Assembly (NCBI GenBank): GCA_010093815.1
Contig: ML996571.1
Strand: one strand, 5' to 3'
From: Pseudovirgaria hyperparasitica
Taxonomy: Eukaryota
DNA length: 64,000 bases
Part shown: positions 8,030 to 64,000 of the stretch, piece by piece
Layout of the letters: the number at the start of each line of letters is the position of its first letter
Numbering within the stretch: position 1 is the stretch's first letter
Position numbers and translations under genes: made by a program
The notes under the pieces: model-generated
What the model saw: only the letters and a program-made list of their open reading frames with translations
Database searches by the model: none
Told to the model about the DNA's origin: nothing

Positions 8030-9305
8030 TATAGAAATAAGTAATACTACATTAAATAATAGGGATCCTCTATAATTAGTATTAATCCTAGCCGTTTCTA
8101 ACCAAGAAGTAGAAATATTAGACTAAATCACGGAGCTTTTAGATAAAGAAATAGTAGATATACTAAGTAACTTCTAATAATATAAAGCCGGATAACGAGT
8201 TATGGCGGAGCCACATGAGGTATTATAATAAACTATTACCGAACTTTAGAAATACGTCGCGAATTAGGCTTAAGAGATTTAAACTATTAAAGAATAGATA
8301 GAACGCGCGAAACTCCTCGTAAAGAGACGAGAACTTAAGAAGTCTCTTAAAGAACTACGCCGAACGATAGTAGATAGATAACTCCCTATACTAATTTAGG
8401 CGGAATTAGTTCACCTACCATTAGAGTTATAATAATCTACCGTATACCCGGCCGCTTCGTTACCGATTTACCCTACTCCTTCCTTAGATATACTAAAATC
8501 TAAAGACCCGACTATATTTATAGAGAAGAACTAAAAGGAGTAGAAAGACTAGAAGAGAGACTACGAAAAGTACTTCCTTAATAACCCTCTACTCTTTTTT
8601 ACTAAAGTATAATATATTTCGTTCGGAGAACGATACCTAGGCTTATAATCCTATGATTAATAGAATAGATAGAAGGAAGTATAGCTACTATCTACGATAA
8701 CCTAGGAATATTTAGCTATATTTATACTAAACACCCTCGGAACGGATAGAGAACGTGAAAGAAAGGCACTATCTAAGTTAAGAAGCGTGGTATAACGATC
8801 GAACTAGACACCTACTTAACTACTATAATACCTCTAAAACCTATAGGATAATATCCCTACGCTATAGAAAAATATTTATATATTCTAGTTTCGCGAAGTA
8901 CTACTTCCGTTAATCCACGAAAGACTAGGAATAGTATTATTAAGTTTTAACTATCTATATAAATTAGAGGAGAAAGCTAATGAATACTACCGCATCCTTA
9001 AGGAACGCGGCTCTCTAGGTAAAACCGACGAACCCTATACGGGTTAGAAATAAGGTCGATCGAATACGTTCGATCAAGAGTAACCTTACCGCGATTAGCG
9101 CTAGAAGAGCGTAAATTAGGGTAGAAACGCGTTAAGAGGACACCGAAATAATTAAGGCGGTACTTCTTAACGCGGAAAAGTATAAGGCATAGGCTTAAAT
9201 ATAACGCCTATCGTAAAATAGTAGGATTATAGCGCACTTCGTTACTATAAGTATAGAGAAATAGAATATATTTCGCCTAACTATAAGAATCCGAAAAAAG
9301 AATAG
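8030..9305 (+). pseudogene. gag: gag of element B
   Basis: De-RIPed CCHC knuckle RCYKCGEIEHISPNC at about 9240-9285, then an A-rich slippery run (CCG AAA AAA GAA TAG) with pol in the -1 frame. Start approximate. Confidence 0.8.
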
Positions 9306-21890: not shown

Positions 21891-22725
21891 GCTACTATCC
21901 CGCCTACTCTACCCGTTAATATTAATATACTAGTAATTATAACCTAATCGCCTTATAAATTAATATATAATGCCGGTACGCTCGAGAGTTTAAGCGAACG
22001 TATAAAAGTATAAAGAGTAAAGACGTAGGATAGTAGTCTAACAGTTCATAGAGAGACATAGGAATGTATTTATAGAGTAATCTTACTCTTATACAAGGTT
22101 AATTCCTAACGAGTAGGAATCGGTTTATACGGTCTACTTATATAGTAACCTCGCTTAACTTAGCTAACTTAACCCAGCTCTAGCCACTACGTGGCTATAT
22201 AGATTAGAATAGTCTATATAGGTCTATTATAGTTCCCGTCCTAATAATATCCTTCTTCTTTTTATACTTCGCCCCGAAGTACTTAAGTATATATAATTCT
22301 AAGTCTCTATAATCTATCGTGTATCTATATATCCGTAACTAAGTTCCTATAACGTTATAACTATCCTTAATATAGGTAAACTCGAGATTCTAGTTTACTT
22401 TTACTAGTTTATGCACGCGCTTATCCCTTACTTCGTGGCTACTACCTAGGATATATAATTACTACTTTAGTCGAGTATATATTTAGCTTTACTCACCTTT
22501 AATTTTATTCTCTAGTATATCCACCTCGCTCTTAAGGTAAGTCGTTAATTCATATACTATCTTCTCTAGTCTAGGTTTAGAAGGGTCTATAGTAGTCTAT
22601 TCTTATTAGAACCGGTCTAATATAACCTATCCGCGTTATTATAGTCACTAATTTAGCTTCGTTAATCGCCGTTAAGGGTAGACGAATATTCCTTTCTTAG
22701 ATCTCTAGCTAACGTGTATATATAG

Positions 22726-27500: not shown

Positions 27501-28400
27501 TTAGAGATAAGAGGTAGTAGGTAATAATTCTTTCGCGTAATATTATTTAGGCTATAGTAGTCGACACATAGACGGAGACTTCTATCCTTCTTCTTTATAA
27601 AGAGGATTAGAGCTCCGGCTAGAGATATACTAGGCCTAATCCATCCTCGCGTAAGGTTCTTTTCGATATATTCTCGGAGGACCTATAGCTCAGGTTCTAA
27701 TAGAGGGTATATAGGTCCGTATAGGGGTTATTAACCGTCTTCGAGGTTAATAGTAAGGTCGGTAGGTTAGTATTAAGGTAATTCGGACGAGTCGATCGCT
27801 AACACGATATATTAGTATATTTTATACTAATATAGTAGGTTTTCGTCCACTTTAATACTAAGCTCTCTATTTTAAGTAAGTAAGAGGACGTAGATAGCGG
27901 AGATTACCTTTTCGTAGTCCTTCTAGAATTATTCGTCGTCGACTAGCTATACTAGGTTCTATTATAGTAGGTATATACGCTAGCCAGCTATTTTCTAGAT
28001 AAAGTCTAGTTTCGGGTTATATTTTTCGAGCTATAGTATACCGAGGATTATATTAAAGGGACTATCTACTACGATAAAGATTAAGTAGTAGGGTTTCCAC
28101 TTCCCCCCGCTATCCTAGATACCGTATTTAATAGTATAGATACCCTACGATTTAATAGAACTATCGATACTATAGAAGGTAGTACCTATTAGTACTTAAA
28201 TGTTAACGTTAAGTTCTCGTACTCGTTAAGTTAATATAACGTTAGTAGCTAAACTACTATTAAGTATTACGGTCTAATATTATCCACGAGGGACCTTAAT
28301 GGGCCTAGCCTATAGTTTAATATACTAGTTAGCTAGTTATCCCTCTATTTTAGTTACGTCTACGAGTCGCGAGGGTTCCTTATAGGTAGTTAGTTTTTTA
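24570..28400 (-). pseudogene. pol: pol of element C (protease-RT-RNase H-integrase-chromodomain)
   Basis: CIIYLDDILIFS intact at about 27281-27246; RVETDAL near 26785; chromodomain VFEVD.II.H..Y.IRWKDY..EDTWE at about 24870-24760. Confidence 0.92.
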
Positions 28401-29750
28401 TATCGTGTACTAGGTAGTTAGGCGCGATATATCCTAGCTACTAGCACTTATAGTATATAACTAACTTAGTATCTATATTAGTATTCGGTGGTTTCCCTAA
28501 GCGGTACTCGGGTACTATATAGCCTATTCTACTATAGGTGTAGTAGGTGACTTTAGGTCGTTTATATAAGTCGTTTCTCGCGTCTTAATATATCGACTAG
28601 TAGAAAGATCCGCGGTACGGGCCTCGTCTTCTCGAGTTCATAGAGTAGTAGCGCCTATAAGGTGTTCCGCGCGATCTATTACTAAACCGGTCCTCTTTAG
28701 ACGATTTTATATTAGATTAGATTAATAGGGATAGTCATGCGCCTATACGACGTTAGTTATTCATTATATGCTAATATCGTTCTATGAGATTCGCGAGTGC
28801 CTAAAGGTTGGTAGAGATAGATATTATAAGGTCGATACGTTCCTTTACGCTTAGGTTAAGGGACCTTTTAAAGTCGTCGTATTATCGAACCATACGATCT
28901 TCCTTAGCTTCTCTCTAAAGAGGTTAGAGGTATTCGAGGAGTTATAACGGGGATTATCTCTCTCGCTATTAAGTCTTAAAGATATGGCTCTAAGCCTATT
29001 CGCGTCGCTCGGCTCTATCGCCGAAGTATTAAAGAAGGAATTCGGTAAACATGTCCTAGTTATACGCATCCTTAGGGTGTTTAATTTAATATACTATCTA
29101 ACGTTTAGATGGCGTTAGGTCTAGGTAGTTCTATACGAACCTAATCTTATTACTATCGTTCGTGAATAGATGGAAGAATTAGCTATACTAGTAAGCCTAT
29201 TTATAAAAGCTCCTTCTGGTTTTACCGTCGAAGTAAGGTAGTTTCTTAGGCTAAGGTAACTAGGATAGTAATAGACTTAGTTAGACTATTTCGGCTTAAG
29301 TTAGTCTATATTAGTATAGGTTAGTTACTACTAGTACTAAAGCGCGTAGTGCGGCTTTAAGTCTAGCGGTTTATCCTTACGCTTCGTTAAGTTTATAAAG
29401 TTACTACTCGAGCTAAGCCTAACGCTACCTCTCCGTGTATAGCTTAGTATATACGTTATTATAAGGCATGGTTAACGTTAGTCGGTTCTAACGAATTAAT
29501 TCGTTAACGTTAATAGGGTCTAGTCTTATAGTAAGGATAGGTCTAGTATAGTATAAACTAGACCGCGATAGAGTATAATAGACTCCTTCCTTATTATCTA
29601 GGTAATCTTCTATAGTTATACGGAATGCTATACTAGTTATTAGTGCGATAGCCTATAGGGTATACTTATTAGTAGAGGTGGTCGTAGAGAGACTATTCTC
29701 TTCGTTTAGATTTAGAGAGAGTCTCTCGTATAAGGTAGTACCACGGGTAT
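28390..29750 (-). pseudogene. gag: gag of element C
   Basis: De-RIPed knuckle CYKCQQPGHIAPNC (~28455-28413), followed by the canonical -1 slippery site A AAA AAC TAA. Start approximate. Confidence 0.8.
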
Positions 29751-30908
29751 TATAGCGTGTAGTAGAAGCTATCTCTATAAGCTACCGTCGTACTATATAG
29801 AGAGAAATTAAAATATAAAGAGTAAAGACGTGGGATAGTAGTCTAATAGTTTATAGAGAGACATAGGAATGTATTTATAGAGTAATCTTACTCTTATATA
29901 AGGTTGATTCCTAACGAGTAGGAATCGGTTTATGCGGTCCACTTATATAGTAACCTCGCTTAACTTAGCTAACTCAACCCAGCTCTGGCCACTACGTGGC
30001 TGCATGGATTAGAATGGTCTATATAGGTCTATTATAGTTCCCGTCCTAACAAAAAGTCTAATATTATATACTATTTAGGGCCGGGAAGGAAGCGCCTACT
30101 AGCGTAGTAGTTATTAAGGCGATAGTAGAAGTCTATATATAACTAGATATACTAAGTCCGCCTTCTTCTTATATAGTTCTATTACTAGATAATATTACTA
30201 GTTTCGATATTGCGGGAGAGGAGTTTATAGATATAAACCTATGAATATTAGTATAATATCGGCTCGATAGTACGTATTATAGTATAAGGCAAGTTATATT
30301 TAAGTGGTAGTTAGATATATACGCTAGTATACTAACGAATATATAGTATCTCTACTATAAATAGAATAGGTAAGGTATAGCTAGTAATATCTTACTACCT
30401 AGAAGAGATAGTTACCGTAGAATTTAGGAGATAGGCTCGGCGTCTATGGCGTTAGTATATTAGACGGTTGAATTTTTATATAATACTATTTACTTATATC
30501 TATATTTACCTAAGCCCTAATTTAATAGCCTTCTATAACGTACTATATACTTAGTTAGTAAGCTACTAGACTCATATAATAGTAGTATACTACCCTACTT
30601 TATATACTACTTAAGCTACTATTACTTTAGCCTACGTTAATCTTAGCTTCCTTTAGTTATCCTTATATTATAAAAGAAAACTTCTATAAACCTTTCCTCT
30701 ACTTATCTTAGTTTTTAAACCTAAATCTTACCTTCTATACTTTATTCCGTGTTAATTATAACTATATATAAACGCTATATCGAACTCGACTCTATTAACC
30801 CTTAAGGTCTATTCTATATAATAGTTAACGAGGTTATATTTATAGTTTATAATATGGATTAAGAACTCGTTATATTCGGTAATATTTAGGACTAGTCTAC
30901 GCTTAATA

Positions 30909-31190
30909 TAATTAAGCCTTATATTTAAGCCGAGTCTTATATTTAAGTCGAGCCTTACGTTTAAGTCGAGCCTTATACTTAAGTTAAGCCTTACGTTTAA
31001 GTTAAGCCTTACGTTTAAGTCGAGTCTTACGCTTAAGCCGATTCTTACGTTTAAGCCAAGCCTTACGCTTAAGCCAAGCCTTACGTTTAAGTCGAGCCTT
31101 ACGCTTAAGCTAATTCTTATGTTTAAGCCGAGCCTTATGTTTAAGCCAATCCTTACGTTTAAGCCGAGCCTTACGCTTAAGTTAAAGCTT
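30909..31190 (+). repeat. 18-bp in-frame tandem repeat, about 15 copies (AAGCCGAGCCTTACGTTT), in the helicase N-terminus
   Basis: Directly visible units encoding (K/E)PSLT(F/L) hexapeptides. Confidence 0.92.
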
Positions 31191-34100
31191 ATAATATAAC
31201 TACTATCTTAACTAATAATAAACCACTCGTCTTTAGTATACTTACCGGTAACTACCGTTCTAATAATAAGTATAAACTTAAGAAGGTCTAAAGTAGTAAG
31301 ACTCCCGTTTCTACTAACGCTATCTATTAGATCTCTCTTATATAGGGTAATCTATAGTTAATCTTTAGAAATGTCTATAGTATTAGTAGAGAAATAGATA
31401 GACTTAAGTAGGAATAAGCGAAAACTTAAGCCGAGCTTAAGCTAGTAGTATTTAAGGCTTATAGTAAAGGTTACGGCTTCGAAGAGTTAATTAGTTATAT
31501 ATATAGATTTCTTAAATTCCCTAAGTACCGCTCTTAGATTAAGTTACGTACTCGCTTCTAATAGATTAATAAAGGGAAATTAGTATCCTTAATAAGCTTA
31601 CTCTACTTTAATTATACTAATATCCTTCTATTATCCGACTACTCTATAGTATAGATCTTTAAGGTTAAGTAAGTAGATAACTTTATTAAGTATTTTTCTA
31701 AACTTTCTAATCTTATTATAAGCGAAGTAGATAAAGCTAATATACTATATACTAATACTAGTCTCTACGAAGACCCTCGCGACTTTTAGATTATTAAACT
31801 TATAGCTAGCGAGCTTCTTAGTATAGGTTTTACTATCTCGTTATATATTAGACCTAATATAATATATAAATAAGTAAAGTAATTCTTTAAAGATCTAGGT
31901 ACTTATACTATAGTTTATATCTTACTACCGCTACGTAACTCTATAGATCTTACCGGCTTTAATAATAAGCTTAAACTAGAGAGTAATCTAATTAATTCAT
32001 AGTATATAGAAGTTATTACTCCCTATATATAATATAGTATAATAAGTAGGCCGGACACTTAGCCCTAGATCTCTATTCCCTACCGCGAGTCATTTAATAA
32101 GAAATTTAACTACCTAATATATATTACTATAAGTACCTTATAAGATAAATAGATAGATCTTCTATTATCCTAATTCCAAGATATTACTATTAGATATATC
32201 TAGCTCTTAGATATTACTCGGGCGCTCTTAGCTATTATCTATTCTATTAATACGAAAGGATTCTATTATATAGAACCAGGTAGTCGTGGGTACCTTAAAG
32301 TAGATTTAAAGAATTATAATAATAACGTATACCGCTTTAAAGTCCTTCAATTTTATTTAGGCGTCCTTCTATTTAAATACCTTACTCTAAAAGTCTTTAA
32401 TAAGGTTAGACGTCCTTCTAAAGCATCTAAGGTACCGATTATATTAATAGATATAGTTACTAATATAACTTAAGCTTATTCTAAACATTTTATTCGGACT
32501 AGCGATACTAGTTTAAGTATAATTAGGTTATCTCTTACTACGCTTATAGGGTTCACGGACGTTCCGGCTTTAGTTAGCGTATAAACCTATAATAAGCTTA
32601 CTAAGTAACGCATTAATACATGCTAGAAACTAACCTACTACGCCGTGTAAGCTCCTAGAGACGGTGGCATAGATAACCATGCCGCTTAGGATACGTTTAA
32701 TACGATAGTCCTTAATATTATTATAGACTTGGTATCTATATCTCTAATATATAGGTCCCCTAACCCTAATAATAAGATTCTAGATTATAGTATAGAGCCT
32801 TAGAATACCCTTATTACTCTTTCTAAATTATCTATATCCCTAGATAATAATAAGGACATAAATATAGAATATAGTCACGATGTTATTAGCGATAAAGGTT
32901 CTATTACTAGCCCTATTACCGATATATATATACTCCTAATATTATCTAAAGTCCGCTCTAGTATTCTATCCTCTTTACTACCCTCTATATAGAATCTAAT
33001 ACTTAGTAATAACTATCTAAATCTTTAACCCGTTAACTATAACCACTACGTTAAAGATTATAAAAGATTCTACGATCTCTAGAATATTATATGTTTAGAA
33101 CTATCTCTCTAATAATAGTATATCTATATATAGGTAACGGACGTACTTAGGGCTTAGTTTCTACTTCACGGCTATGGAGGAGCTAGGAAGAGCTATTTAT
33201 GGCTTTATCTACTACTAGCTATACTTCTAATTAACGAAATGAACGGTACTCCTATTATCGCTTATACTACTAAGGTAGTTATCCTATCTAGTAATATAAT
33301 AGCGCACCTCTCTATACTAGGTTCCACCTAAATATATAGAATATATATATATATTATTATCGGCCTAACTAACGAAACCTATAACGATGCTATAAGAAAA
33401 GTATATAAATATATAAGTAATATATTTACTTACTATAAGTCTCTAAAGATACCGGTTATTCTTTAAAGATGCCCCGAAGCCGTTAATTAAGAGGTTTTCT
33501 TTACTATAGCTAGACTATCTTATTATGGTAACCCTCTTATTAGGCTAACCTAGAATAATATAATAGGCGGTACCATCCTTATATAAGCCTAGGCTAACTA
33601 TAGTAAATAACTATTAGAATATAGCACGGATCCCCGTGCTTATCTATAGGAACTATATACTAGTTACGTTACGCTTAAGGTTATTAGACTTATTAAATCT
33701 TAATACTAATATAAATAGATCTCTAAGAATTTCGAGAAAGAAACGGCTTAGCTATTATATACTATCTATGAACGTTACGCTTATAATAAGGATATACCTA
33801 AGGAGAAGTATAATAGAATGAACGAGCTATACCTTGCTACCTAGGACCTAGTTACTATCTACGCCTAGATTTATATAGGGACCCTATATATTATAAATAT
33901 TACTAAGGTAGCCCGTAATATATATCCGATTTTAGTTATAATAGAAGAGGCTATATATATCCTTAAAAGTAATATACTCGGGATTATTATTAATTCTACT
34001 ACTATGGAATAGTAACTAATATTTATTTACGTTAGCGACCTATGCTAGCTTAACATCTACTAGCGTAATAGTACTAATATATAGGCCGTAAACTAGAGGA

Positions 34101-35181
34101 TCTCCTTTATAAAGCGCTAGATATAATATAGTTTCCTAACTACTTACCTTACCGAGTTAGAACGCTTAGTTCCTAGAATAATAAATGTTATATTACTAAT
34201 TACTTACTTGGGTAAGCTAACGACCTTGCCCTATATAACGAATAATGTTAATATACTACTTATAGAGACCGTTTAATAAACATTTAGAATCCGCGGCTAT
34301 TAATACGTTATATATACTAACGTTAACGGGGATCACGCGTATATAGTAAATAACTTAATATATAATATAGACTTATTACGTTTCACTTAGTAGATTATTA
34401 CTAAGCTCTTCCGTTATAGCGTTATACTCGATTACGTGCTCTATATTTCTAAATACGCTACCTAACGTAATCTATTTAAAGGAATAGTTAGGAACTCGCT
34501 TCTAACTATACTTACCGTAGCGGATAAAGCTTAATTTAATACCCTACCTAAGCCGGTATAGAAGCTTATCTAATGGCGTTTATAGGACGGTTCTTAGGGT
34601 TATAATAATAATATAGTCCTTATTAACCTAGTCTAAACCAATTACTTTAGCTTTCTCTTAGAAGTAAACCGTAACGTCGTTACTATTACGCGCGCTAAAT
34701 AGATAATAGTTATTATCCCTAACTTTATATCTCTTAAGAGATAGAAAGTCCTAGACGGCGTACTTAGTAAGATATAGAATAAGTCCTCTAAGATTCATGT
34801 AATATACACGTGCACGACCTCCGATCTAGATAGTCTCCCTCTACTCTCTAATATACCTAATCCCTAATATAGTTACTCTATACTTAGTATTAGAGAGAGG
34901 GGAGAACGAAGCGATTAATAAACTACCGATGGTACTAAGCCCTATAAGCCGCTAGTCTACTATAAATATAATGTTAAAGGATATAAGTCTATTAAGTGTC
35001 TAAGAGGGTTAACGGTTATATATAATAACTATTAGAATATCGGCTATAAAGCTAATGTTTACCCTAAACCCAAGACGCTTATAGGTATGTTTTATTATAA
35101 TTATAAGACTACTAGTTATACTTGGCGTTATTATCCTAGCCGTACTAAATTACTAGCACGTATAAATAGTAATAATCTAGT

Positions 35182-35270
35182 TAATACTACTAGAGCTAAT
35201 ACTACTAGAGCTAATACTACTAGAACTAATACTACTAGAACTAATACTACTAGAGCTAATACTACTAATA
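35182..35270 (+). repeat. 15-bp tandem repeat, 5-6 copies (AATACTACTAGAGCT), in the helicase tail
   Basis: Directly visible; read as ANTTR repeats in the ORF track. Confidence 0.9.
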
Positions 35271-37663
35271 AAGTAACTACTAGCGGCTAGGACGATAGAG
35301 ACTACGAGGATACCGACCGAGACGGCGGTGTTACGATATATAAAGATATAGAAGTTAATTAGTAATAGTATATAATTAGACTTATATATTAGAGCTACTT
35401 AGTTATGGCTTCTTAGTAAGTATACCTCTATATCTATTTTAGATATAGTTATAATATTCTACTAGGTAGATAGTTTAGCTCTATTAAAGACCTATTAAGG
35501 GTATTTCTATTATATCTACTCTAGTATAGACGCGCTATTAGATAATACGGCGCCACTAGGCACGTTAACTAGTACCTACTAATTAAGAAATAAACACGAT
35601 TCTATATCTACTATAAGCCCCGGCCTAATAACGTAGGCTTCCTTTAGTTATCCCCTTTATACTTTTAAAACTACTTCTAGCCTTTATATTAGAAGATATT
35701 ACTACCTAAAGAGAAAATATAAAAAACATACGCCCTAATTAAAGCCTCTACCTTTAGACTTTAACTATAGAATATACGAGATATAGTAAACCCAAATATC
35801 ACGTACTTTAAAAGCATGGAAGAATATAATACTTAAATATAATAAAATATAGGCGTACGATACTTGGAGAGTACCTAGAGATAAGTACATGAATATAAAA
35901 TAGGATAAGACTAACGCAGCACCTAGTACATGCGTAGCCATGTACCGTCCTAGACGTAGTTACCTACGATATAATATTATAAGATAAGAGCTATAGCTAT
36001 CTAATTCTATTAAGGGTATTAGATAATATAAAGTAAATAACCACACGCCTAACCACGCCATACTAAGTCACGTGCATATTATGAGCGCGTGTTTAAGGAA
36101 TAATAAGAACATAAATAAGTTTCACCTAGTAGGTATCTCATTATTCCGGCTTCTACCTCTATCGTCCAATCTATACCTCCGTCTTCCTTATACCTATAAT
36201 ATACTATATATATACTATATAATTAGTCCGTAAATTATAAATACTATATTAACTATACACGTTAACTATATACAATTAATATATTAAATCCGATTCTATA
36301 ATAAAGTAACCGTCCAAATATAGTAATTACTATAGTACTACTTTATATCTTAAGTCTAGATATATAAGTAAAGCGTGAAGCTATAGAGGCGCGTATAAGG
36401 TAGCTATATATAGAAGTATATACGGCTACTCTACTTATAGACTATAGGTATTAAACTAAGAACGAGCTTAGCGTAAAAAGAGCATATAAGATTATTAATA
36501 AGATAGTAGGTAAATTTCTAGTAGTATAGAAAAGAGTAGTAGAGTACGTAGAGATAAAGGCGCTATACTATATCTATAACTAGGTACGCACTATAGTATA
36601 GAAAACCATATATTATAGAAAAACTATCTCCGAGTATAAGAAGAGGCGTATAATTATAGCCCTATATTCTATAACCTTATAATCCCCGCCTATTACGACC
36701 TTATAACCTTCGCCTATTACGACCTTATAACCCCTATCTATCACGACCTTATAGCTCTCGTATACCACGACCTTATAGTCTATACTTATAGTAGTTCTAC
36801 AGTCTACTAACGTATATACTACGAGAAAAATCAAATTTATAATTAGGTTTAACGATAACACATTCCTTAAAATACTAGTACCTACGTCTAACTAGTAGAA
36901 AGATTATAGTAACGCTTCGTGTATTAATTTAGTAGTATTTATATAGTAAATTAGGGTCTAATACATAATAAAGACTAGGAGGGTACTTAACTAGAGCCGT
37001 ACTACCATACATTCTATTATACTACTAGTTAAGTATATAATAAGTAAAACGGAACTAGAGGTAGATATTAGATAGCTTCTATAGTGTGGTGAGCCATCGC
37101 TACGTGTGTCCCTTTTGTAAATGGCTGTGTTTCTAGTATAGTAGTCGACGACGAACTCATAAGTATCTCTCCTAGGTATTATAAGTTCTCTTTAAACGCA
37201 CGACTTCTTATTAGTTCTCTTTTACGATAGGACGGGTCTATATAATACTCTTAATCAATTCTTTAATAGCTAAGCCTAATAATTAATACCCATAGAGGCC
37301 TATAAATGTAAGGAAAGATCGAATAGTCGAATATTAGTAATGGGGGAAGCGCGCCAAGCAGAATGACCAAGGAAAACGCCCTCCTTAAATATATAATAAA
37401 GCCATATAATCGAGCTAGGGATACATATATATGGGGCTATAGGAGCGGCCTTCCATATATACCTCCCCGGCCTATAGAACTACTACCCTTAGTAGTATAG
37501 TAACCGTATAAGAAACCATGTAAAGAACGCCTAAAAGAAAGACCTTAATACGAATAAAATGCGCCCCTAGTAAACCTCTCGGCGCGGGTAAACCTTAGCC
37601 CGGATTATTAGTTAAGGGCAGCCCTTAACTAATAATCAGGCAGGTTTTCAGGCGCCTAATCTT

Positions 37664-40589
37664 AGTACTTAAGGTCGCGAGCCAGCTCCTAAAGAATCGT
37701 GTCGCTTATCTTAGAGAGGTTAGATTCCTCCTTATCGGATAGTTCGTTAGGCCTCTCCTATCTATAGAAGTTCTCTTAAATATTATCTAGGCCCGCGTCG
37801 GACTCGAATTTCTTAAAATTAATTAGCCACTTAGCGGCGCGCGCCTTATTAAATTCCTTCTAGAACGACCTATCCCTATAGACTAGCCTTTTCTACCTTA
37901 CTATTTTCTTAAAGGTCTCTACGAATACCCTTAAGCCCTCCTTAAACCAGGCGTCTATCTTAGCTTTAAGTTATTAAGGACTTGCGTTAAGCCACGTAGC
38001 TACCTCTTCTTTTACCTTCTAGCTATTCTATCTTTTATAGCCGACTAATATATTACTAACGGCGTTAAAACTCGGGAGTTAAACTACGGCTAGAAAGGTA
38101 AAAGGAATCGCGCTATATTTATTAGAAAATCCCGACGGAGACGTGGGTCCTAGAGTTAAATTCCTATGAGCTACTGCGAGTTGTTCCTATATACCCATTT
38201 TAGGCACTTCCATTATCATGTAATTAGGGCTAATCGCGATATACCATAGAAGCATTATACGTCTTCCACCCTTTACGGGACCCTAGGCGCCGTGTATTAT
38301 TAGTAGGCTAGAGATACGTACTTTAAGGGACTAGTAGGGGACCGGGACGAAGGGACTAAATCGTTTCTTATCGTCCGTATTATAGATCTTATCATTAATA
38401 GCCGTGATTATACCGTTTCGATTAACCCCCTCGCGGAGCTTAGCCTTCGACTACTATTCGTTTAAGAACTTATAGAAGCGGGGAACGATTATAGTATAGT
38501 CGTCACTTCATTCGTCGTCAAGACTAATACTCCCCTAGATTATATTAAACCCGTGTCTATCGCTAGGATCGAGGATTCGATTAATGGCGTTGTCGAGATG
38601 CTTAAAACCCGTCTTATCGCCCCTATCCTAGGACTTCGCATAGTACGGGTACGAGATTAGATAGTAGTTAAGATCAGGCCAAAGAGCGACATAGATAAGC
38701 TAGTAAAGTAGATATTACCTAATAAACTATTAGATATAGGAGTGGTATATAGTTCGTAGCCAGCCGTAGTTCGATTTCTTATTAAACATGCGCTAGTAGT
38801 ACTTATATATATTAAATTCATCCCTCGCGAGTTCTAGAATACTCTTATTAAGTATAGAGGTCGTCTTTTTAAGTAGCTCGAAGAGCCCTTTAATGTTAAT
38901 ACTTCCGGTACGTTCCCACTCGTCGAAGAGTTACCTACCTATCCTACTATCCTCCTTCTAAATTACAAATGCGATACTAGTAAGGATAGTTTTAATATTA
39001 ATAACTTACTTCGGGGTCTCTAGAGCCTAGTAACGATAGATACCTAATGCCTCTATCGGATAAGGTGGCCGCGCGTACTTCGCGAACTAGGTATAGCGGT
39101 CCTTATAAACTTTAAGGGCCCCCACGTTATCTCTAAACTTATATACTATTTTAAGTCTCGCTACTAGGTTTAAGTAGGACACGCTAATAAGTATATTATT
39201 CTTTCTAGCCACGTCTTAGTAATGCTTATAGTAGACTTTATATGGAATAGCTATATTACCTATCTACGCTTTCTAGCGTACTAGTAGGGCTATTCCCTTA
39301 ATACTCGTGAAATTCTTCTTTAATAATATAGCTGCCTTAAAAGTCTTCGTCACTAAAGGCGCGTATTAACACTTCTTAGGCTCGTCCTCTTTCTTGACCG
39401 ATACTATTATCTTAGGGTATAAACTAAGAATAACCGGGGATTATCGTATAGGCGCCCCTAGTAATTACTAAGGGCCGGTAGATAAGGCACGTCCGCGAGT
39501 AGGTTTTGTCGGTATGGCCGTAACGGGCACTAAAGAGATTCTTGCATAGCCCGGTAAGGAATATATACTAGTAGTAGTAGAAGAAATGCTTACTTCGAAC
39601 GGACGACTAGCTTTAAAGAGATAATATACTACTAAACTAGGAGGCGTGCTTCGTGGAGGGGACTTTACCATAGGCGTTATCTACGCTAGTTTTAGCGACG
39701 GTAAGGTCTAAGGCGGAGGCGATGCACTTATCTCTTTGATTTATAGGTAGTATTTAACGGGCCTATGAACCATTCTACTTATCCGTAACTATTAACTAGC
39801 GGGGATAATAAGTCCCGTCTTATTATAGAACGTTAGTTTATTTTATCGGCTAGGGTAGTTTAAGAGTTACTAGAGAGATGGACCGTCCTTGTTACTATCG
39901 CTAGCTAGGGCGGTATTAATATTAGAGCTCTAAAGATATACCTTAATTCCTCTTCCCTTCTATCTCTAGCCGATTCGGGACTATAGGGATGCGTTTAACT
40001 AGTTCCTCGCTCTTGCCCATGTCCGCATTTATAAGAGCGCTACTAGCTTTTCTATGAAGTTCTATGTTTACTAGAGCTGTCCGAGGGCGGATTAGAGTAA
40101 CTAGCCGTTATTATTAGGGAGGTCTTTTTACTAGTTTTATAGGATTATATTTTTGGCTTTTAGGATGCGGGAGTTAGTATCTCTTCTACGACGAATTATC
40201 TCGTAGACTTCTTTCGAAATAGAGGAGTTAATCTTTACCTTACTATACTCTATTATAGCTTCTACTTCCTAGAAGAGGTTAACTATACTACTTAAGAGCT
40301 ATTCTACGAGGCTAGTAATATAAAGGAGATTATTAAACGTGTCTAGAATATAGTCCTATCGCTCTTACGGGTCCTAGATAGCGATAATTTAGTTAATAGT
40401 AGACTTATTTACTTCCGTAGCTTCTATAGCCTATCCGTACGGAGTAGTAGATGGCCTTAATACCACGATAGCCGTCGATAGCCCTACTTTAGCACTTACG
40501 ACTCTTAACTAGGACCGCGTCTATCTTATTAGTGCTTAACGATCTTATAACTCTTTATAGGTAGGCGTTTTCTTTTTCGGCGGGGCTAT
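37664..40589 (-). pseudogene. ORF3 of element D: ~975-codon protein with a C-terminal 2OG-Fe(II) dioxygenase (PhyH-like) domain
   Basis: Starts at a RIP-altered ATG (MAPPKKKTP). TGFKHLD has intact His 38600-38598 and Asp 38594-38592; de-RIPed QGSISLDDE..DCTIIVPRFHK follows; distal IHGAQGP has intact His 38294-38292, followed by GGRR. Confidence 0.75.
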
Positions 40590-41269
40590 TATTATTATTA
40601 ATTCTATCAGCGAGTTATATTCTAAGGAGAGGTAGTTAAGCGAGGCGGAAGTAGAGGAGGAGGTTTTATTAATTAAGGAGGTATGGAGAGGTGTAAGAGG
40701 GAAGAGTTATATACTATCTTAAGTTCTCTTTTTATGCCTCCTTGAATGCCGGGTATATAGTAATTTTTATAAATGATCCTTACTAACGGCCGTAGGCCCG
40801 TATACGTGTCGAATCTATGAATAAATATATACTAGGTATATAGGAAATCTATGAATAAATGTGTCTACCGGGTATATAGCGGAATCTATAAATAAATAGA
40901 TACCGGGTATATTCTTATCCTTATGAGACTTTCTATAAGTATCTTTTTCTCCTATATCTCCTCCTTCTTTTCTTCCTTATTAGTTTCTAACGGGGCCCGT
41001 TCTATAGTAACGAAATAGGCCTTCGATAGGTAGGCTTCGATTACACGACCGGCTTTAATATGTAGTGGGTAGAATTCGCGTAAACGCCATTATGTCTTCT
41101 TTCGAGCATTACTTACTTTAATAATAAGTTTTATTATTTTATAGTAATAATAGAGTTTATTATCCTCTTTCGATAATAGAGTTTATCGTCCTTTTTCGAT
41201 GATAGAGTTCATCGTCATAAGACTACTTTTATAAGTATCCCTTCCCTCCTTAAAAAAACTTCTATCCCC

Positions 41270-44200
41270 TAGAAGGAGATGTCGATTCTAGGGAAACGCA
41301 AATATTCTTCTCTATTAAAGTCTTGCGGAGTAGGAATTACCACTTCCACCCGGGTTTATATGGCGTCGTCGAGGTATTCCGTAAGTTATTTATAATAGTT
41401 TTCCTTATCACTACTCTCCTTATTTTCCTTGGTAATTCTTCTAATTAGTGGTCGCAAGGGCTCGTCGTAACTCTCGTTACTTATATTTCTTATAAAATAT
41501 TTCTTTAACCTATGGCTAGGAAACGTCCCTCTAAGTATAGCTCTATTAAGCTCCGCGAGCTTATAAGTATAATTAAACACGGACTAGATTCTATATAGCC
41601 CCCTCTAATGCTACCTTAGCTTCCGCCCTATATCCTTCTATCGCTATAAGTTATATAGAAGGATAATTATATTAACTAGTAACGAATCTTAACGAAGGTA
41701 ATGGTCGTTATTCTATACCTCTCTCGATTCCTCACGCGTTCGTGTCGTGTAGGTATAGGCCTCCTTAAGATCCTTAGATCTTCTCTTAAGTTATCTAGCT
41801 TAAAGAGCGAGTAAGTCGGACGTCGATTGCACCTCGTCCTAAGGGAGTATTTAGAGCGACTCGAATTCGACTTCGATAGGCATGATTAGTTTATAGCCGA
41901 GCACGAGGTATACGGTACTATACCCTATGCTAGCACGTATTATTATTCTATCTACCTAGATAACCGCATGGAGGTGGCCGGGCTAGTTCTTGAATCCGCT
42001 ATTAGTTATCTTCGCGAGAGTATTAGTAAGTAGTATAAAACTTCTCTTAATAATCCTATTTACTCAGGGATTATATATAGACGTAACCTTCTAATAAATT
42101 CTATAGAGTCGGAGGAGCTCCTCTATAGCACCCACATTTTCTCTACTACCGTTATAGGTGATTTTAGGAATAATTCTATATCTATAGATTACGTTCTTAA
42201 AGAGGAACTTTATAACGACTATGGACGTAGCCGCCGTATATACCTCTGCCTTAGTCCATCCGCTTAGCTATTCTTATATAGATACTACTTTACTATACCC
42301 TATAGAAGGTAGTAGCGTCGTTACGTCTAAGTATATTCTTTACTAAAGAATAGGCGTTATAACGTAGTAGAGCCCTTTATTAAGACCTCTAAGGAGTTTA
42401 CTTTATCGTTAATATTTATTATAGGTTTTCACGTGCTATCGCACGTCTCTACGTATACCTATCTACTAATACTTATCCTTAATTCTTCTAAGGGTCCCTT
42501 CGCTACCTCTATGATTTATCTTATTATAAGTAGCGGTAATTATACGCGCCCTAGTATTCGGATCCTTAATTACTCGTGTATATTAGCGATGTCTATCTCC
42601 TCTCCGCTAGAGTATTCGGTTATATATAAGGAACTTTAGGTAGTCGGTTATAAAGGCCTTATACGCTCGGTTAGTTAGGTTAGTTAGCCTCTCGAGTATA
42701 GTAAGGTACTTCGTAATCCTCTACTATTTATTACTATATTTATCTATTAAGGGAGACTTAATAGCGGTATAGTTAAGTATCTCTATTATATAATCTCTCC
42801 CGCTAACGGGCTTAATTAACGACGTCTCTAGTACGTCTATATATAGAGCTATATCCACGAACTCGTCTAGGTTAAAGGTAGAGATATCTAGTAGTTCTTC
42901 TCCTTCGTACATCCGTAAGATACCGTCGGCGACTATATTACGCTTCCTAGGTACGTACCTAACTATAAAGTTCCATAGCTAAATCCACGCGAGCCACCTA
43001 GTAACGAGCGCCCCTAGTAAGTTAGTTACGGTACGGTTAATTTAAGCGACTAGAGTATTCGCGTCTATTTCTATAATAAAGTATATACTATAGAGGTATT
43101 ACCGGAACTTCTATAATGCGTAGAGGAGGGCTCGGTACTCTAGCTTCACGGTATCGTAGTTTCTCTTAGCTTTTAACTATATTCCTCTATTATACCGCGA
43201 TAGCTAACGTTTATAATTCTTATTCTTCTATATTAACGTAGCTCCCCACCTAACGTTACTAGAGTCTACTACTAGAATTATATCTCCCGTATCTATCCCG
43301 TACTATAACGTTATTAGTGCGGGAGTAGTAGTTAGAGCTATCTTTAGCGCGTCCATCGAGGTCTACTCCTTAGCTATCTACTACTAGGCCGATTCATTCT
43401 TTAATAGTATAAATAGCGGCGATGTGATAATAGCGTACCCGGGGATCTATATCCGGAAATATATATAAACGCTAAGAAAGGCTCGCATATTTATCGTGTT
43501 TTTATAGGGTTTCCAGTCCCTAATAGTAGTAACCTTTTTATTACTCGGTCGCCTCCCTTTAATATCGTAGACGTATTCTATAATATTAGCGGCTTTAACA
43601 TACTACTAAGTCTTCTTACTACTTAGGGCGTATCTAGCGCGCTCTATATCCGCGAGAACCTTATCCACGTTAATTAAATGTTCTAGAATATATCTATAAA
43701 TTCTAGGTAGGGCCTCCTTAGAGTTATATTTCGTCGTAGGTCCTTTAATACCTAAGTTATCTAGGAATAGTAGAGCCCTCTCCGGGATGTATTCTTATAT
43801 AATAGTTAACATAATTCTAATGAACTAAGCTACTAAATTAGTGGCCCCTTAAGGTAATGTTATCCCGCGTAGTAATCCTAGGGGCGTTATAAACCCCGTT
43901 AAGTCTCGGTAATACTCTACTAATAGAATCTAATCGTATTCTAAGAAGAAGTCGATAAACGTTAAGACGGCTATCCCCGTGAAGTACTCCGAGAACTCTT
44001 TATATAAGGGCGGCGTGGCCGTATTATAAATAGTAACTCGGTTGATTTCTATCGCTAAATTAATTAACCTATAATCTCGTTCCTTATTAGCTACCTTCTT
44101 CTTTTCCACGAGAAAATAGGCGTTTTAATAAGGACTACTATAGGGCTCGAGCCTTCTACTATTAAGACGCTCTTTTAGAATCATAAGTACCTTCCTATAA

Positions 44201-47200
44201 AGGGCTCTAGAAATATTAAAGTTCTTAGTCTACCATGCCTTATGTTCTACCGTTCGGATCTCCTACGGAGGTACCACCTCTTTATTAAATTTACTAAGGT
44301 ATAAGAATTCCTATACTAGTACTTCCTCGCGATATAATAAGATCATATATAGTAACTTAAGTTCCGCGGGACGTAGCTCTATTCTAATCTTTAGCTAACT
44401 TATACGTAGAGGCGTTAGACGTGTTCCTAGCGGGATAGTTACCCGTTAAGACTCTATTAGCCTATTAAACGCGTTAAGGCCTAGGTAGACGGCTAGAAGA
44501 AGTACCTACCGTGCGATTACTCGTTTACACTAGTCTAGATACCCTAATAGATTCCTAGGAACCTTTCGGTGGGCTTCGGAGTCATCCACGGGGTGTACTT
44601 TAACTCCCTTTCTTTTATATATAGTAGCTATACTAAATCCCTTTAATACCCCGGATAAATACCGTCTTTAGAGGCCGGTAGAGCCTACTATAAGCCATTC
44701 TATTATCATACCTTATTTATATACAAAGGCAGCATACCTTACCGCCATAACTAGAGCGGCTAAGTCATCTTTTCTCAATAACCAAGTAACATTTTCAGGC
44801 CGGATTTTCTCGGAAAGCAACTCTATATAACTCATTTCTATATCCATATAAAAATATAGCCTATCCCCTTCGTTAGTAGGTTTACCGGACTCTATTTAGT
44901 GCGGATTATTAGTTAAGGGTAGCCCTTAACTAATAATCCGGCTTAACTCCGGCTTCCGGCGATATACTCCGCTATATAGTTAGTCTCTAGCTACGGAGTT
45001 ACCCTCCTTCTCTAAGACTAGAATATACTCGTCTAGACTAGTTTCGAAGGTTATACGTTCTTATCTATATACGGAGTAGACTATTAAGAGTACTTACCTA
45101 GAGGCTAACCTCTATACCGTAAGTAAGGCCTATCTAGTATATGGCTCCCCTAGAATAAGGTTATAATTAAGTTCGCTATATACGAATATCAAAGTAGCTA
45201 TAACGATCCGACCTATACGGATAGGGTATTACTATACTATTCCTACGAATAGAGTACTATACTAAGTAGCGCTAACTAAACTCGAGTTCTTTATATATAA
45301 TAGAAGCGAAGATATTACTAGCCCGAGACGCCTCGTAGTATCTAGTCGAATACTATTTACCTATGCGCCACTATCGAATAGTACTATACTAGTCGCCCTT
45401 TTAGGACTAACTTCTACGGGGTACCTCAGACACTCAGCCACTAGCCTTACTATCCCTTCCTTAAGCTAATTAATATCTCGTTACGTGATAGCCGTCCCTA
45501 TAGTATAGAGGGGTACTAATATATTAAGTTTATTTATCTCGGGAGCCATAGTATAGTTATTTCTTCCTTTCTTCTTAGCTCTCTCTTCTTAAGTCTTATA
45601 GACCTCTCTAGCTATAAAGTCGGGGGCGCCCTTCTCGAATACCGCACGATATAAGTTACTATTAAGGCTTAATAGTTCGCTAATAGTAATATTCATGGTT
45701 ATCCCTAGAACGCGCACTAGCTATACTTCGCTAGCTTCTATACTTAGTCACTATCCTTCGCGTAGATAGTCATTAAGCTTAACGTCTCGGATACGTGCCT
45801 TTTAACTAGGATTTAGGCTATCCCCTTTATCTATCTTATCCTCCAGCGCCATTAGCTCTTATTTAGACGTTCCCTAGTCGCTACTCTTCTCGCTATCCTT
45901 CTATTCCTTAATAATCCTTATATACTACCCTTTACGTATTCCGCGGAGACGGGCGATCTTTCTTTTCTTAGTATAATTAGGTGTACTCTTCGTAATCCCC
46001 CTTCTAGATATTACGAGCATAGCGGGCTCTTCTAGAGCTATCTTCTTATAGATATATCTATTACTAGCCACGTTAAAGCGTTCATGGAATTCTATATATC
46101 TATCTTTCTTACTCTCGGGCGACGTGACTTCTTCTTCTAAATCGCTATCCGCCGAGGCCTGGTAGGGACCCTTCATAGGTTTTATACTAATACTATATAC
46201 CGGTACTCTCTATAAAGCGTTAATGTTTACTATAGACGTAGAAACCTTTACTCCTCCTCCGTACTAGCTTAGGCCGTTTTAAACCGTTACTACGTAGTTC
46301 CGGATAGCTTATAGAGTAGCTTATGGCCCTACTAAGGAGGGTAGTAATAGAATTTCTTCTCTATTTACCCCGAAACGCCCTCGGAACACTTATACCCCGT
46401 TAATATTTAGTAATCCGTCTCTAATATATCCTACTATCTCTAGACATCTATATATTAGGTAATCTCCTCTATACGTAATGTATATAATTAGTCTTTAAGG
46501 CCTATCCTAGGCTATAACGCCTCCTTAGGAGTCTCGGGTAGAGACGTATTCTCTATTCTATATATAATTCTATAGATAAACTTACGTTAGTTCTATAGGC
46601 ATGCCTTATACTTAGGGATATACTAAAAGATTTAGCCTTCGCGCCTACTAGTTAATAATAGCCGAAAGTAGCTTAGGTTCGTACTTCTTAAGGGATAGGA
46701 ATAAGAGATTAGAGGTAAAGTAGGACTTTATCTTAATTAACGTAAGGTCTAGTTTACTAAATCTCTCTACTATCTCGTTAAACTTATCCGATTCTAGCGC
46801 GACGTATACTACGACTAGAGAGGGGTGGTTAAATTCATTAGTTCTTCTTTCTTCATGTAACTACTCTTCTAAGCCGGTCTTCTTACTCCCTATCTTTGAT
46901 TTATAGTATATAGCTATGGCTAGCTCTTATGCGGCTAAGTGCTTATTAATACGAGCTAGTTCCTTAAGTGCTCTAGCCTTTCGTAATACGAAGCCATAGA
47001 TAATTACCCAATTATAACTATATGCTTCCATCGTGAGTTAACATTTCTCTATAGCCCGAGCCTTAAGACTATTAGGCAGCCCTTCTAGGAAGAGCTCTAT
47101 TCGCGAATACGAGCTTAGGCTTCCTTTAGCCGTAAGTTTCTCCGTAATAACACGATACTAGGAGTAGTACATAGAGAGAGAGTAGGATGGGTCTACTTTA

Positions 47201-47780
47201 ACCATTTCCACGTATTTTCGGACAAAGTAGATAGTGCCTTCCTCGAGGGTAGAGTTAAATAGAGAGAATTCCTTTAATAATTCTTCACGTAGCGTGGCCT
47301 ACTACTATTTCTAAAACCTACTTATTCCTTTAATAGTAGGACGGAGATAGTCCTTATAGTATAACGGTAGGGAGGTTATCTTCTTATTAGACGGAACTTC
47401 GTAGTTTATATATATGTTCTCGTACTTCCGAAGGAAGGCCGTAATGTTTATTCCTTTAAAGCGCTTAGGGGCTAGGGTAGGTAGAGGTACCATGCTTCCT
47501 TATCGCGCAAATGCTACAAAGAAGTTAAGCATCTCTCTACGAGTTACTAGGTCGTTATTTTAAGCTTCTATCGCACTATTACTAGTAGTAGGTATACTAG
47601 TAGAGACGCTAGGGGTAAGGTTATTAGTTAAGGGATTACCTTAACTAAAGGTTGGCCCAATGCGTCTACCTATAACATCTATCATCCCTTCTCTATATTA
47701 ACTAATCCCTTTATAAGGTGAACTATTACTATCGTCTTCATCGATATAAGGTTTACGGTATTCTACTTATATTATTATCT
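41270..47780 (-). pseudogene. pol: gag-pol of element D
   Basis: gag motif PKRFKGINITAFLRKYE (ORF track 47311-47493); de-RIPed CITCGGDH..C (~46480-46440), VLFDSGAQVN (~45385), FLDDLGIKGP (~43768), ILAVDSSDVGWGA (~43280), integrase core (~42330-42050) and WRGPY (~41607). Ends approximate. Confidence 0.9.
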
Positions 47781-48131
47781 TCGTGTGAGGCGTTCCTAAA
47801 GTAGTATACTTATATGGCCGTATTTATAAATGATAGCTATAGTAGCACTAAATAGGTTATATTTGTCGTTTTTAAACTCTTCTTTGCTGCTTTATCTAGC
47901 CCTATTTTATATCCTATTCCCCTAAGACATTTTCGAGTCGCACTATCACCCGTGTTAGCATGCGTATACTTTTTATAGCTACTTTTAAGAGGCTAGCCCC
48001 TAGCGACTCCGGACTCCCTGTTTTCCGGACTCGTGGCTTCGATCTAGTAAGTCTAGACTACCTTATTAGGCACGCTATATACTTCCCCTAAGCTAGTTTC
48101 GGAGTCCTAATCTCCCTCTATAAGTTTATAG

Positions 48132-48148
48132 TCCGGGTACGACCTCTA
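48132..48148 (-). promoter_or_regulatory. Primer-binding site of element D, complementary to the 3' end of tRNA-Gln
   Basis: The plus strand reads TCCGGGTACGACCT-CTA (CCA before RIP), resembling the fungal tRNA-Gln 3' end (..TCCGGGTA(A/G)GACCT-CCA, U discriminator). It lies 4 nt inside the 5' LTR. Confidence 0.7.
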
Positions 48149-49440
48149 AAATTATAGTAAGCTATTGCTACGTGTATCCCTTTTATAAATAGCTATGTTC
48201 CTAGTATAGTAGTCGACGACGAACTCACAAGTATCTCTCCCAGGTATTATGAGTTCTCTTTGAACGCACGACTTCTTATTAGTTCTCTTTTACGATAGGA
48301 CGGGTCTATATAATACTCTTAATCAATTCTTCAATAGCTAAGCCTAATAATCAATACCCATAGAGGCCCATGAACGTAAGGAAAGGTTAAATAGTCGAAT
48401 ATTAGTGATGGGGGAAGCGCGCCGAGCAGAATGACCAAGGAAAACGCCCTCCTTAAATATACAATGAAGCCATGTAATCGAGCTAGGGACACATACATGT
48501 GGGGCTGTAGGAGCGGCCTTCCATAATAGTTAGTAATTAAACGTGTCCTAGAACATAGTAATAGTATAATACTCCTTAGCCTTAGATAGAATATAGATGG
48601 TATACCCAAAGTAAAACGAAATATAAAACAGCGACTAACATATAATAGTATAGACGGCTATATATAGGTTACGCTTAAATAAATCCGTCTCTCTATCTCT
48701 AATACTATACTTACTATAACTAGTATAATAATAGTAATAGAAAGCTACCGCCTATAACGGTAGAGATACCCACGAAGATAGTATTATAGGTAGTAGATAG
48801 TATTACCTAAACGACTCGACCCTTCCTCTAGTAATACTATATATACTACTATCGGCACTTAGAAAGCCGTAAGACTAATCTATAAACTCTAAAGATAGTA
48901 ACTTTAAAAGTCTTAGAAGCACCTTAGATATAGAGGATATAGATCTCGATTATAAAGAGTAATAGAATAATAAAAAGAGTGCTAGGGGTAGTAAGAGTAG
49001 CGCGTGTATTTAGCTAAGGTAATATAATACTAATATAAGACGGGTTCTATCTATAGTATATTAGTATATGCCCGATTCTACTAGCTATATAACCGTGGCG
49101 CGCATGTTTAATCAAGATATTAACATACCGGCATAAGCCGGCGTCTACCTGTTTTATATTAGTATACGCCCGGTTCTACTAGCTATATTATTACTATGAT
49201 TATATTCGTATAAGATCTATACTAATAATTAAATATTTACTTATATACTTTACTTTCTCTATACTTTATAAAATTATATTATAATTAGTAAACGTGGTAA
49301 CTTAACCTCTACTACCTAAATATAGCTTTTAACTCTTATTACTACTAACTCCGTCTTATTACTCATGACCTAAGTCGTATATAGAAATATATAAGTATAG
49401 CGACAGTCACGACCGTCCTAGCTTAACTACTAGCTATAGA

Positions 49441-63660: not shown

Positions 63661-64000
63661 TGTTAGGACTTAGCCTTAGGTAGAACCTAACCTATACGTA
63701 CCTTAGCTAACAGGGTTAGAAGGTGACGTGAAGGGCGGTAAATAGTTACGTGCTAGATAGATTAGCGTCTCTTTATATATATACTCTCGGATTTCTACCG
63801 AAAGGGTTTAGTAGTAATTCGTTCTATAATAGAATATACTCTATTATTCTATCTAACTATACTACTATCTAATAACCCTATTCTTATATTCGAATTACTC
63901 TCTATATAGTACTATAGTTAAGATAGTCTAACTAGAACCGAGAAGGTCGATACGATCTACTATAGGGATAAGTAATACTATATTAAATAATAGGGATTCT
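63661..64000 (+). mobile_element. 5' end of another family B Ty3/Gypsy copy (LTR 63661-63888 plus leader)
   Basis: Near-identical to 7730-8070 apart from transitions. Confidence 0.96.

Follow-up and report, generated by a model that had tools for sequence, protein, structure and literature searches.

A 2-oxoglutarate (2OG) dioxygenase of the AlkB type is encoded by an additional open reading frame (ORF) in giant Ty3/gypsy elements of Phalaenopsis, and passages of the report on these elements propose that it counters host surveillance [PMC9289625]. TET/JBP dioxygenases are carried by fungal DNA transposons (Kyakuja/Dileera/Zisupton, Helitron and others), where they are thought to aid escape from silencing, and section 4.2 of the survey of these transposon-borne genes reported none in retrotransposons [PMC12730594]. 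The window analysed here is a stretch of 64,000 nucleotides from contig ML996571.1 of the fungus Pseudovirgaria hyperparasitica [GenBank assembly GCA_010093815.1], and it includes a degraded Ty3/gypsy retrotransposon with a third gene, ORF3, located between pol and the 3′ long terminal repeat (LTR). This element is probably a copy, killed by repeat-induced point mutation (RIP), of a lineage that regularly carries a gene for a PhyH-like oxygenase at this place, and that keeps it because it contributes to the success of the element.

The orchid elements and the present one are alike in having an additional ORF that predicts an Fe(II)/2OG dioxygenase in a Ty3/gypsy background. However, the orchid enzyme belongs to plants and is of the AlkB type with shown N6-methyladenosine (m6A) RNA demethylase activity, whereas the one described here is fungal and PhyH-like by homology and fold. 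Passages of the same report describe the orchid acquisition as recent and confined to one genus, in contrast to the deep pol lineages seen here, which number four or five at the least [PMC9289625]. The TET/JBP system is similar in that 2OG dioxygenases with the HxD/E...H triad are found on fungal mobile elements of several classes, but these enzymes are from another branch of the superfamily, act on 5-methylcytosine (5mC) or T in DNA and, according to passages of the survey, occur on DNA transposons only [PMC12730594]. In the literature searched, no dioxygenase ORF, PhyH-like or other, was described in a fungal LTR retrotransposon, though Repbase-type catalogues were outside the scope of this search and the family may be present there. 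The passages searched in PMC3248453 include neither 'ORF3' nor 'oxygenase', and in passages of PMC5987419 PhyH is mentioned only as a metabolic gene. As transposon-borne 2OG oxygenases are already known, the novelty here is in the superfamily branch to which the enzyme belongs and in the class of element that hosts it in fungi.

The focal element and its third gene

The element is approximately 11.4 kb long and occupies positions 37076-48525 of the window on the minus strand. The 5′ LTR (48143-48525, core 48157-48525) and the 3′ LTR (37076-37457, core 37089-37457) were detected as a repeat pair using blastn, with 92.1% identity over the 369 bp of the cores and outer ends that are uncertain by approximately 15 bp. 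A separate repeat search gave 93% identity over 300 nt. When the LTRs were aligned locally with less stringent settings, the identity was 88.4% for 423 positions, and 35 of the 49 mismatches are transitions. Protease (PR), reverse transcriptase (RT), RNase H (RH) and integrase (IN) regions follow each other in this order inside the LTR pair, with ORF3 after them and all on the minus strand, and by its LTR pair and domain order the element is a Ty3/gypsy (Metaviridae) LTR retrotransposon.

The aspartic protease portion of a degraded gag-PR frame (44989-45456, minus strand) was identified by tblastn with residues 818-971, the Pfam aspartyl-protease region, of ORF1 from an intact relative, L010, described below (E 1.6e-13). 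Apart from this part, gag had no match in the window when L010 ORF1 was the query. The pol region, containing RT, RH and IN in one stop-riddled frame, was found as a single tblastn high-scoring segment pair (HSP) with residues 42-1099 of L010 ORF2 at 41407-44640 on the minus strand (35% identity), and 43 stops are present in the 853 codons of the part from 44208 to 41650. Pfam searches identified RT_RNaseH above the cut-off (E 1.6e-11, about 43284-42985) and Integrase_H2C2 below it (E 4.4e-4, about 42561-42418; 20.7 bits with a cut-off of 25.5 bits), and predicted no chromodomain in either the window pol or L010 ORF2. One copy each of the pol and ORF3 of this family was detected in the window by tblastn.

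A preliminary description of the stretch from 37664 to 40589, made from the DNA alone, had placed a sense-strand ORF of approximately 975 codons between pol and the 3′ LTR. The location is as described, with pol (44640-41407) upstream on the same strand and the LTR at 37089-37457, the partner of 48157-48525, downstream. The coordinates, the 975-codon frame and the strand, which is that of pol (window minus), also hold. However, the frame is not open. There are 68 in-frame stops in the 975 codons (40589-37664), and the longest open run is 70 amino acids (aa). As the remaining five frames of this stretch each include between 56 and 123 stops, openness does not single out the ORF3 frame, which is distinguished by homology alone. 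In the region 28000-44000, no ORF beginning with ATG reaches 100 aa.

The stops in the ORF3 frame are principally TAG (42) and TAA (25) with a single TGA, and 9 of the 17 columns that have mostly Q or W in relatives are a stop in the window copy. These stops are of the RIP type. A RIP dinucleotide signature extends through all 2-kb bins of the window, with TpA/ApT between 1.51 and 1.97 and (CpA+TpG)/(ApC+GpT) between 0.08 and 0.34, judged against what we take to be the customary thresholds for these indices. The frame was never shifted. Each of 19 intact relatives produced one tblastn HSP inside 39377-37857, in agreement with the earlier view that there is no intron, and no frameshift interrupts the conserved part. 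Since the frame was never shifted though riddled with stops, the earlier reader evidently read through them. The window ORF3 is a pseudogene unable to make protein, and 37076-48525 is a single RIP-inactivated Ty3/gypsy copy. Taken alone, this copy is ordinary, being another dead RIP-mutated repeat.

Conserved domains and predicted fold of the ORF3 product

A conceptual translation of the window ORF3 frame, with X at stops, was used to search 1.84 billion protein cluster representatives with phmmer. This gave 608 matches at E≤1e-3, including 117 at E≤1e-30, and the best had an E-value of 2.5e-79 with 34% identity. None of the 150 best of the 608 matches contains a pol-like part. The full-length matches are mostly 700-1000 aa and align to window residues 400-915, and by profile also to an N-terminal domain. 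A profile constructed from 69 full-length relatives matched the window translation in two collinear stretches with an overall E-value of 7.1e-131 (hmmsearch). The N-terminal domain is helical (residues about 60-238; 39876-40412, minus strand) and was also recovered with a profile of this part only (27.9 bits, E 8.7e-11), for which 200 shuffles and the other five frames reached no more than 2.2 bits. The second profile stretch, a conserved C-terminal region (residues 401-919; 37833-39389, minus strand; independent E-value 2e-122), comprises a C2CH motif, a helical part and a PhyH-like double-stranded beta-helix (DSBH) domain.

The KHLD and the IHGA followed by RR that were pointed out in the preliminary description are indeed in one minus-strand frame, with KHLD at 38603-38592 and IHGA at 38297-38286, then GGRR. 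The H-L-D of KHLD (38592-38600) aligns with the FRHxD of relatives and represents the HxD of the metal-binding triad. The distal His (38294-38292) and an Arg ten residues on (38264-38262), which would be expected to bind 2OG, align with PHG...RRT of relatives and together define the segment 38262-38294. All four residues survive in the window copy, and each is conserved in at least 90% of sequences in alignments of both 113 members (H191, D193, H292 and R302) and 69 members (H638, D640, H739 and R749). C397, C399, C443 and H446 in the 69-sequence alignment are likewise conserved in at least 90% and are invariant or nearly so. This CxC...CxxH motif is probably a zinc site.

The structure was modelled on a relative, P0005, using AlphaFold2 with 113 aligned sequences, and not on the broken window copy. 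The model has a predicted local distance difference test score (pLDDT) of 91.2 and a predicted template modelling score (pTM) of 0.86. Lack of a DSBH fold match had been named beforehand as an outcome that would overturn the dioxygenase prediction, and the fold is present, with 217 Protein Data Bank (PDB) matches at E≤1e-3 in Foldseek. The top matches listed are all PhyH-like 2OG oxygenases; no AlkB or TET/JBP protein is among the Foldseek matches listed or in the Pfam scans of relatives. The best match in VIA-align is YbiU from the DUF1479 group (Z 20.5, root mean square deviation (rmsd) 3.1 Å, 275 aligned), followed by Candida Gig2 (Z 18.8) and by GriE, EctD, KanJ, FtmOx1 and PrhA (Z about 15). 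Most of the best 50 matches (Z 20.5 to 14.4) are named as 2OG or PhyH-like oxygenases.

Structures of the DUF1479/YbiU/Gig2 group (4rgk, 7twe, 2csg, 6akz and 2dbi) share the DSBH core and flanking helices with the model (Z 18.6-20.5, rmsd 3.1-3.6 Å, 268-278 aligned). However, the sequences are only 11-14% identical and the resemblance to ORF3 is structural only. Furthermore, the members of this group are stand-alone proteins of approximately 400 aa that have neither the N-terminal domain nor the C2CH motif and are not located on mobile elements. YbiU is listed as uncharacterised in passages of the literature, and the ORF3 family offers a handle on this uncharacterised structural group.

PhyH (PF05721) is the sole Pfam family matched among 55 short relatives, with an E-value of 0.01 or lower in 26 and a score that reaches the cut-off of 22 bits in 16. 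PhyH was also matched by three of 16 long relatives, all below threshold, and the ORF in locus L032 scored 28.1 bits. The ORF3 family has the HxD, His and Arg spacing of PhyH, but most of its members fall below the cut-off and form a divergent subfamily with a large N-terminal extension of its own. The Gig2-like PF07350 was not found in any of 194 homologue and locus proteins (Pfam thresholds 0.01, 0.01, 1e-5 and 0.01). When PDB sequences were searched with the 113-sequence profile nothing significant was obtained, the best match being designed helical repeats (E 0.04) and the sole oxygenase having an E-value of 2.7. As modelled, the ORF3 C-terminal domain is a PhyH-like DSBH Fe(II)/2OG oxygenase with an intact catalytic motif, which bears out the enzyme class originally predicted.

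The full-length ORF3 of L010 was also modelled (pLDDT 77.5), and consists of a helical N-terminal domain (residues 50-245, pLDDT about 80-97), a disordered linker (248-384) and the catalytic region (385-900). The N-terminal domain had no usable Atlas feature match, and its structure matches all have a template modelling score of 0.31 or less.

ORF3 in other elements, and competing explanations

Metagenome contigs were scanned with an alignment of close relatives, yielding 119 confirmed places from which 80 loci were kept. Loci in which 5 kb or more of sequence precedes the conserved domain, 36 in number, were considered informative. A pol of the same lineage is present within 5 kb upstream on the same strand in 20 of these, at a distance of 0.6-3.0 kb in 19 and 4.4 kb in L055, and a further 4 contain only pol fragments upstream. 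The 20 loci share the order gag-PR, RT-RH-IN, ORF3, and the position and strand of ORF3 are the same in every linked locus. The expectation that other copies of the family would have the ORF at the same place is borne out by these loci, many of which lie between LTR pairs. Complete gag-pol-ORF3 arrangements within LTR pairs were seen in L009, L010, L021, L033, L041, L045, L046, L048, L049, L056, L058, L059, L066 and L074, and the contigs of L035 and L054 each wrap around one element. L021 is RIP-like and has the gene order of the window element.

The element in L010 is intact, with LTRs that are 99.6% identical over 279 bp. ORF1 (977 aa) includes an aspartyl protease, and ORF2 (1122 aa) matches RVT_1, RT_RNaseH and Integrase_H2C2 above the Pfam cut-offs, with rve below (26.0 vs 32.6 bits). 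ORF3 (986 aa) starts 357 nt after pol, ends 48 nt before the 3′ LTR and aligns collinearly with the window ORF3 (E 4e-71). The ORF3 of intact relatives is generally about 950-990 aa in length, and as naturally intact copies exist, the enzyme is directly testable without reconstruction. Seven sequencing runs match L010, only one of which contains more than half of its sequence words, and this run may be the source sample.

ORF3 is under purifying selection in young copies. Comparison of L009 with L010 gave ratios of nonsynonymous to synonymous substitution rates (dN/dS) of 0.173 in gag-PR, 0.074 in pol and 0.071 in ORF3, indicating that ORF3 is as constrained as pol, and the two halves of ORF3 have values of 0.067 and 0.072. 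For more distant pairs dN/dS is saturated and dS undefined. Trees of pol and of ORF3 give the same linked groups, namely {L009, L010 and their clade}, {L039, L050, L054}, L035 and L021. The window pol is sister to that of L021, both on long branches. ORF3 is carried by no fewer than four or five deeply separated lineages, which have 40-50% identity in pol.

ORF3 takes up approximately 3 kb, or a quarter of the element. To our knowledge, LTR retrotransposons rarely fix extra enzymatic genes, and the known extra genes (env, and AlkB in orchids) have each revealed a layer of host-element conflict. Because it has been kept in several deep lineages under selection as strong as that on pol, ORF3 very probably serves the element in an important way. 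The protein would be catalytically active as an oxygenase and translated from the transcript of the element itself, perhaps via a spliced or internally initiated mRNA, a route proposed because 357-449 nt separate ORF3 from pol. The N-terminal domain and the C2CH motif may dock the enzyme on a macromolecule, and most plausibly it would act by oxidising a macromolecule, whether a nucleic acid or a protein of the host or the element, that restricts expression or integration. ORF3 would then be kept because it raises the success of the element.

Fungal repeats are silenced via RIP, DNA methylation, methylation of histone H3 lysine 9 (H3K9) and RNA interference (RNAi), and by analogy interference with one of these pathways would be an obvious role to propose for an element-borne oxygenase. 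The preliminary description had suggested that the element may oxidise or demethylate nucleic acid or chromatin in order to evade silencing, an attractive proposal given the orchid AlkB and fungal TET/JBP precedents. In its fullest form, this would make the PhyH-like oxygenase with its docking domain a dedicated counter-silencing factor of the whole fungal Ty3/gypsy lineage, acting on a macromolecule that carries methyl or other marks (histone, DNA, RNA or a component of RNAi or RIP), and moving between element classes. We regard this as improbable in that form. Movement between classes is suggested by the copies that adjoin Helitrons, integrase-like genes and DDE transposases, and we know of no 5mC- or T-oxidising activity among PhyH-like enzymes. 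If the proposal were true, ORF3 would be the retroelement counterpart of TET/JBP on fungal DNA transposons and of AlkB on the orchid gypsy elements.

Several observations weigh against a regular third gene that is retained for the benefit of the element. No pol is located upstream of ORF3 in 12 of the 36 informative loci, and none was detected there with a more sensitive pol profile. TE-linked copies (those linked to a transposable element) and unlinked copies are interspersed in the ORF3 tree, on which the TE label must change a minimum of 5-7 times, and so it is not established that the gene was acquired once in the distant past. The gene may also have a role that does not depend on LTR elements, and the unlinked pair L001/L003 has a dN/dS of 0.19. 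Many of the TE-linked loci are from one metagenome series and may be copies from a single species or very few, and no RNA run is listed among the 7 sequencing runs that match L010. At the level of the protein, no AlkB, TET/JBP or JmjC structure is among the 50 best VIA-align matches listed, and the nearest solved structures (DUF1479/YbiU/Gig2, GriE, EctD and KanJ) are of small-molecule or uncharacterised-substrate proteins. No Pfam family was matched at E≤1 by the window ORF3 reading, or at E≤0.01 by L010 ORF3. In the window copy, a target-site duplication, a primer-binding site and the exact LTR ends could not be fixed because RIP blurs the ends of the LTRs.

The unlinked loci bear most directly on the possibility, which we consider real though doubtful, that the principal home of the gene family is outside LTR elements, in the form of host genes or of cargo carried by mobile elements of other kinds, and that ORF3 is a mobile passenger with a history of repeated pick-up or escape. 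In nine of the 12 unlinked loci the ORF is intact, with a length of 620-1169 aa, and the DNA has a normal composition. Their neighbours include Helitron Rep/helicase genes (L032 and L038), DDE transposases, an integrase-like ORF belonging to Pfam rva_4 (L003 and L077) and an ORF of 1280 aa shared by L008 and L014, and only L030, which has just a fragment of ORF3, is found among ordinary housekeeping genes. However, the pol and ORF3 groupings agree across all TE-linked lineages, and the constant place and strand of ORF3 in linked loci also argue for a resident gene. Decay of the surrounding element readily leaves an unlinked copy behind, as in L019 where only integrase fragments are upstream of an intact ORF3, and such decay explains part of the interspersion of linked and unlinked copies. 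Moreover, the ORF3 segments of L032 and L038 are 84% identical but the Helitron segments 96%, and the two do not behave as one co-evolving unit.

It is unlikely that ORF3 specifies a small-molecule hydroxylase, as most PhyH-like enzymes of established function are, with an indirect effect or none on the element, carried either as selfish baggage or as cargo that benefits the host. After the DUF1479 group, the fold matches that rank highest are oxygenases of amino-acid, ectoine, aminoglycoside and meroterpenoid substrates, and the Atlas look-alikes of the enzyme are PhyH/Gig2-like clusters (score 0.88), which is a lead only. However, the enzyme domain is always joined to the conserved N-terminal domain of approximately 200 aa and the C2CH motif, and both halves of ORF3 are constrained like pol in young copies. 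Since the added domains are conserved and constrained in this way, docking on a macromolecule fits better than a free metabolic enzyme, and there is no metabolic gene cluster around ORF3 inside the element.

A non-catalytic scaffold, with the domain serving as a pseudo-enzyme in the structure of the particle or in targeting, is very unlikely. The fold matches include a PhyH-like chain from the RESC complex of trypanosome RNA editing (8fni, Z 14.6), and we take this chain to be non-catalytic, but conservation of the HxD, distal His and Arg at the levels given above would be expected only if binding of the metal and 2OG matters. A chance or unrelated insertion in one copy, either a nested element or a captured host fragment, is hardly credible despite the long distance of approximately 3.9 kb between the end of pol and the 3′ LTR and the presence of at least two small palindromic inserts in the window copy, as ORF3 is at the same place in the 20 linked loci, intact young elements included, the 975-codon frame is collinear with relatives over its full length, and the linked lineages, which come from several metagenome series and are 50-60% apart in pol, exclude a nested insertion or one-off capture.

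Neighbouring genes and other repeats

In L032 and L038 the ORF3 relative is arranged tail-to-tail with the Helitron Rep/helicase gene (5553-7415 and 7610-10642 in L032; 8762-11251 and 11722-16845 in L038). On the opposite side of both ORF3 relatives is a common ORF without a known family, which was also found in L040. A role of ORF3 as Helitron cargo was considered and rejected on the difference in segment identity (84% vs 96%) and because the junctions differ. The two genes are adjacent, and at these identities co-mobility is not established.

The ORFs of approximately 1280 aa in L008 (3089-6952) and L014 (242-4078) have no Pfam family, are upstream of ORF3 on the same strand and share 24% identity with one another. 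A partial relative is present in L004 (18841-19863). This ORF may represent a partner gene, or it may belong to a different mobile element that has yet to be described. The integrase-core-like ORFs near ORF3 relatives in L003 (5330-6433) and L077 (6628-7674) match rva_4 with an E-value of 2.3e-10 and are 31% identical over 339 aa. Their occurrence in two unrelated loci hints at a further element class tied to the ORF3 family.

L019, L020 and L027 represent one locus in three assemblies, with three copies of the ORF3 family within about 21 kb. The intact ORF3 in this locus is 939 aa and is directly downstream of integrase fragments only, possibly an accessory gene that has outlived its element. 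L057 and L072, which are on one contig, are RIP-like and include an ORF3 relative between LTR-like repeats (e.g. 515-799 and 11559-11843, 94% identity). No pol or gag was detected between these repeats, and the arrangement may be a non-autonomous derivative. The L057 and L072 sequences join the window ORF3 in the tree, on long branches.

In the window element, a purine run, GGGGAGG (37462-37468, minus strand), precedes the 3′ LTR by a few bases and, from its position alone, may act as a polypurine tract. A 4-bp CTAT was examined as a target-site duplication and dropped, as it depends on the chosen LTR start and the ends shift under the looser alignment. The repeat search identified two short palindromic inserts, one in pol between PR and RT (44896-44946) and the other between ORF3 and the 3′ LTR (37595-37641). 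The 33-nt palindrome, which is perfect or nearly so, is found in 5 copies in the window (829-861, 37604-37636, 44905-44937, 58088-58120 and 59417-59449), which have 0-3 substitutions in a search allowing up to 6, and 20 shuffles gave 0. Its flanks are rich in G+C, unlike the RIP-mutated surroundings. From its sequence, the palindrome looks like a small hairpin-forming mobile insert similar to a miniature inverted-repeat transposable element.

The window as a whole is a graveyard of RIP-mutated repeats, in which only two stop-free runs reach 120 aa or more. Further LTR-like direct repeat pairs are present, for example at 22002-22247 and 29807-30052 (93.5% identity) and at 7726-8069 and 63657-64000 (91.9%), and a repeat of approximately 2 kb occurs in inverted copies at 594-2687 and 58355-56252.

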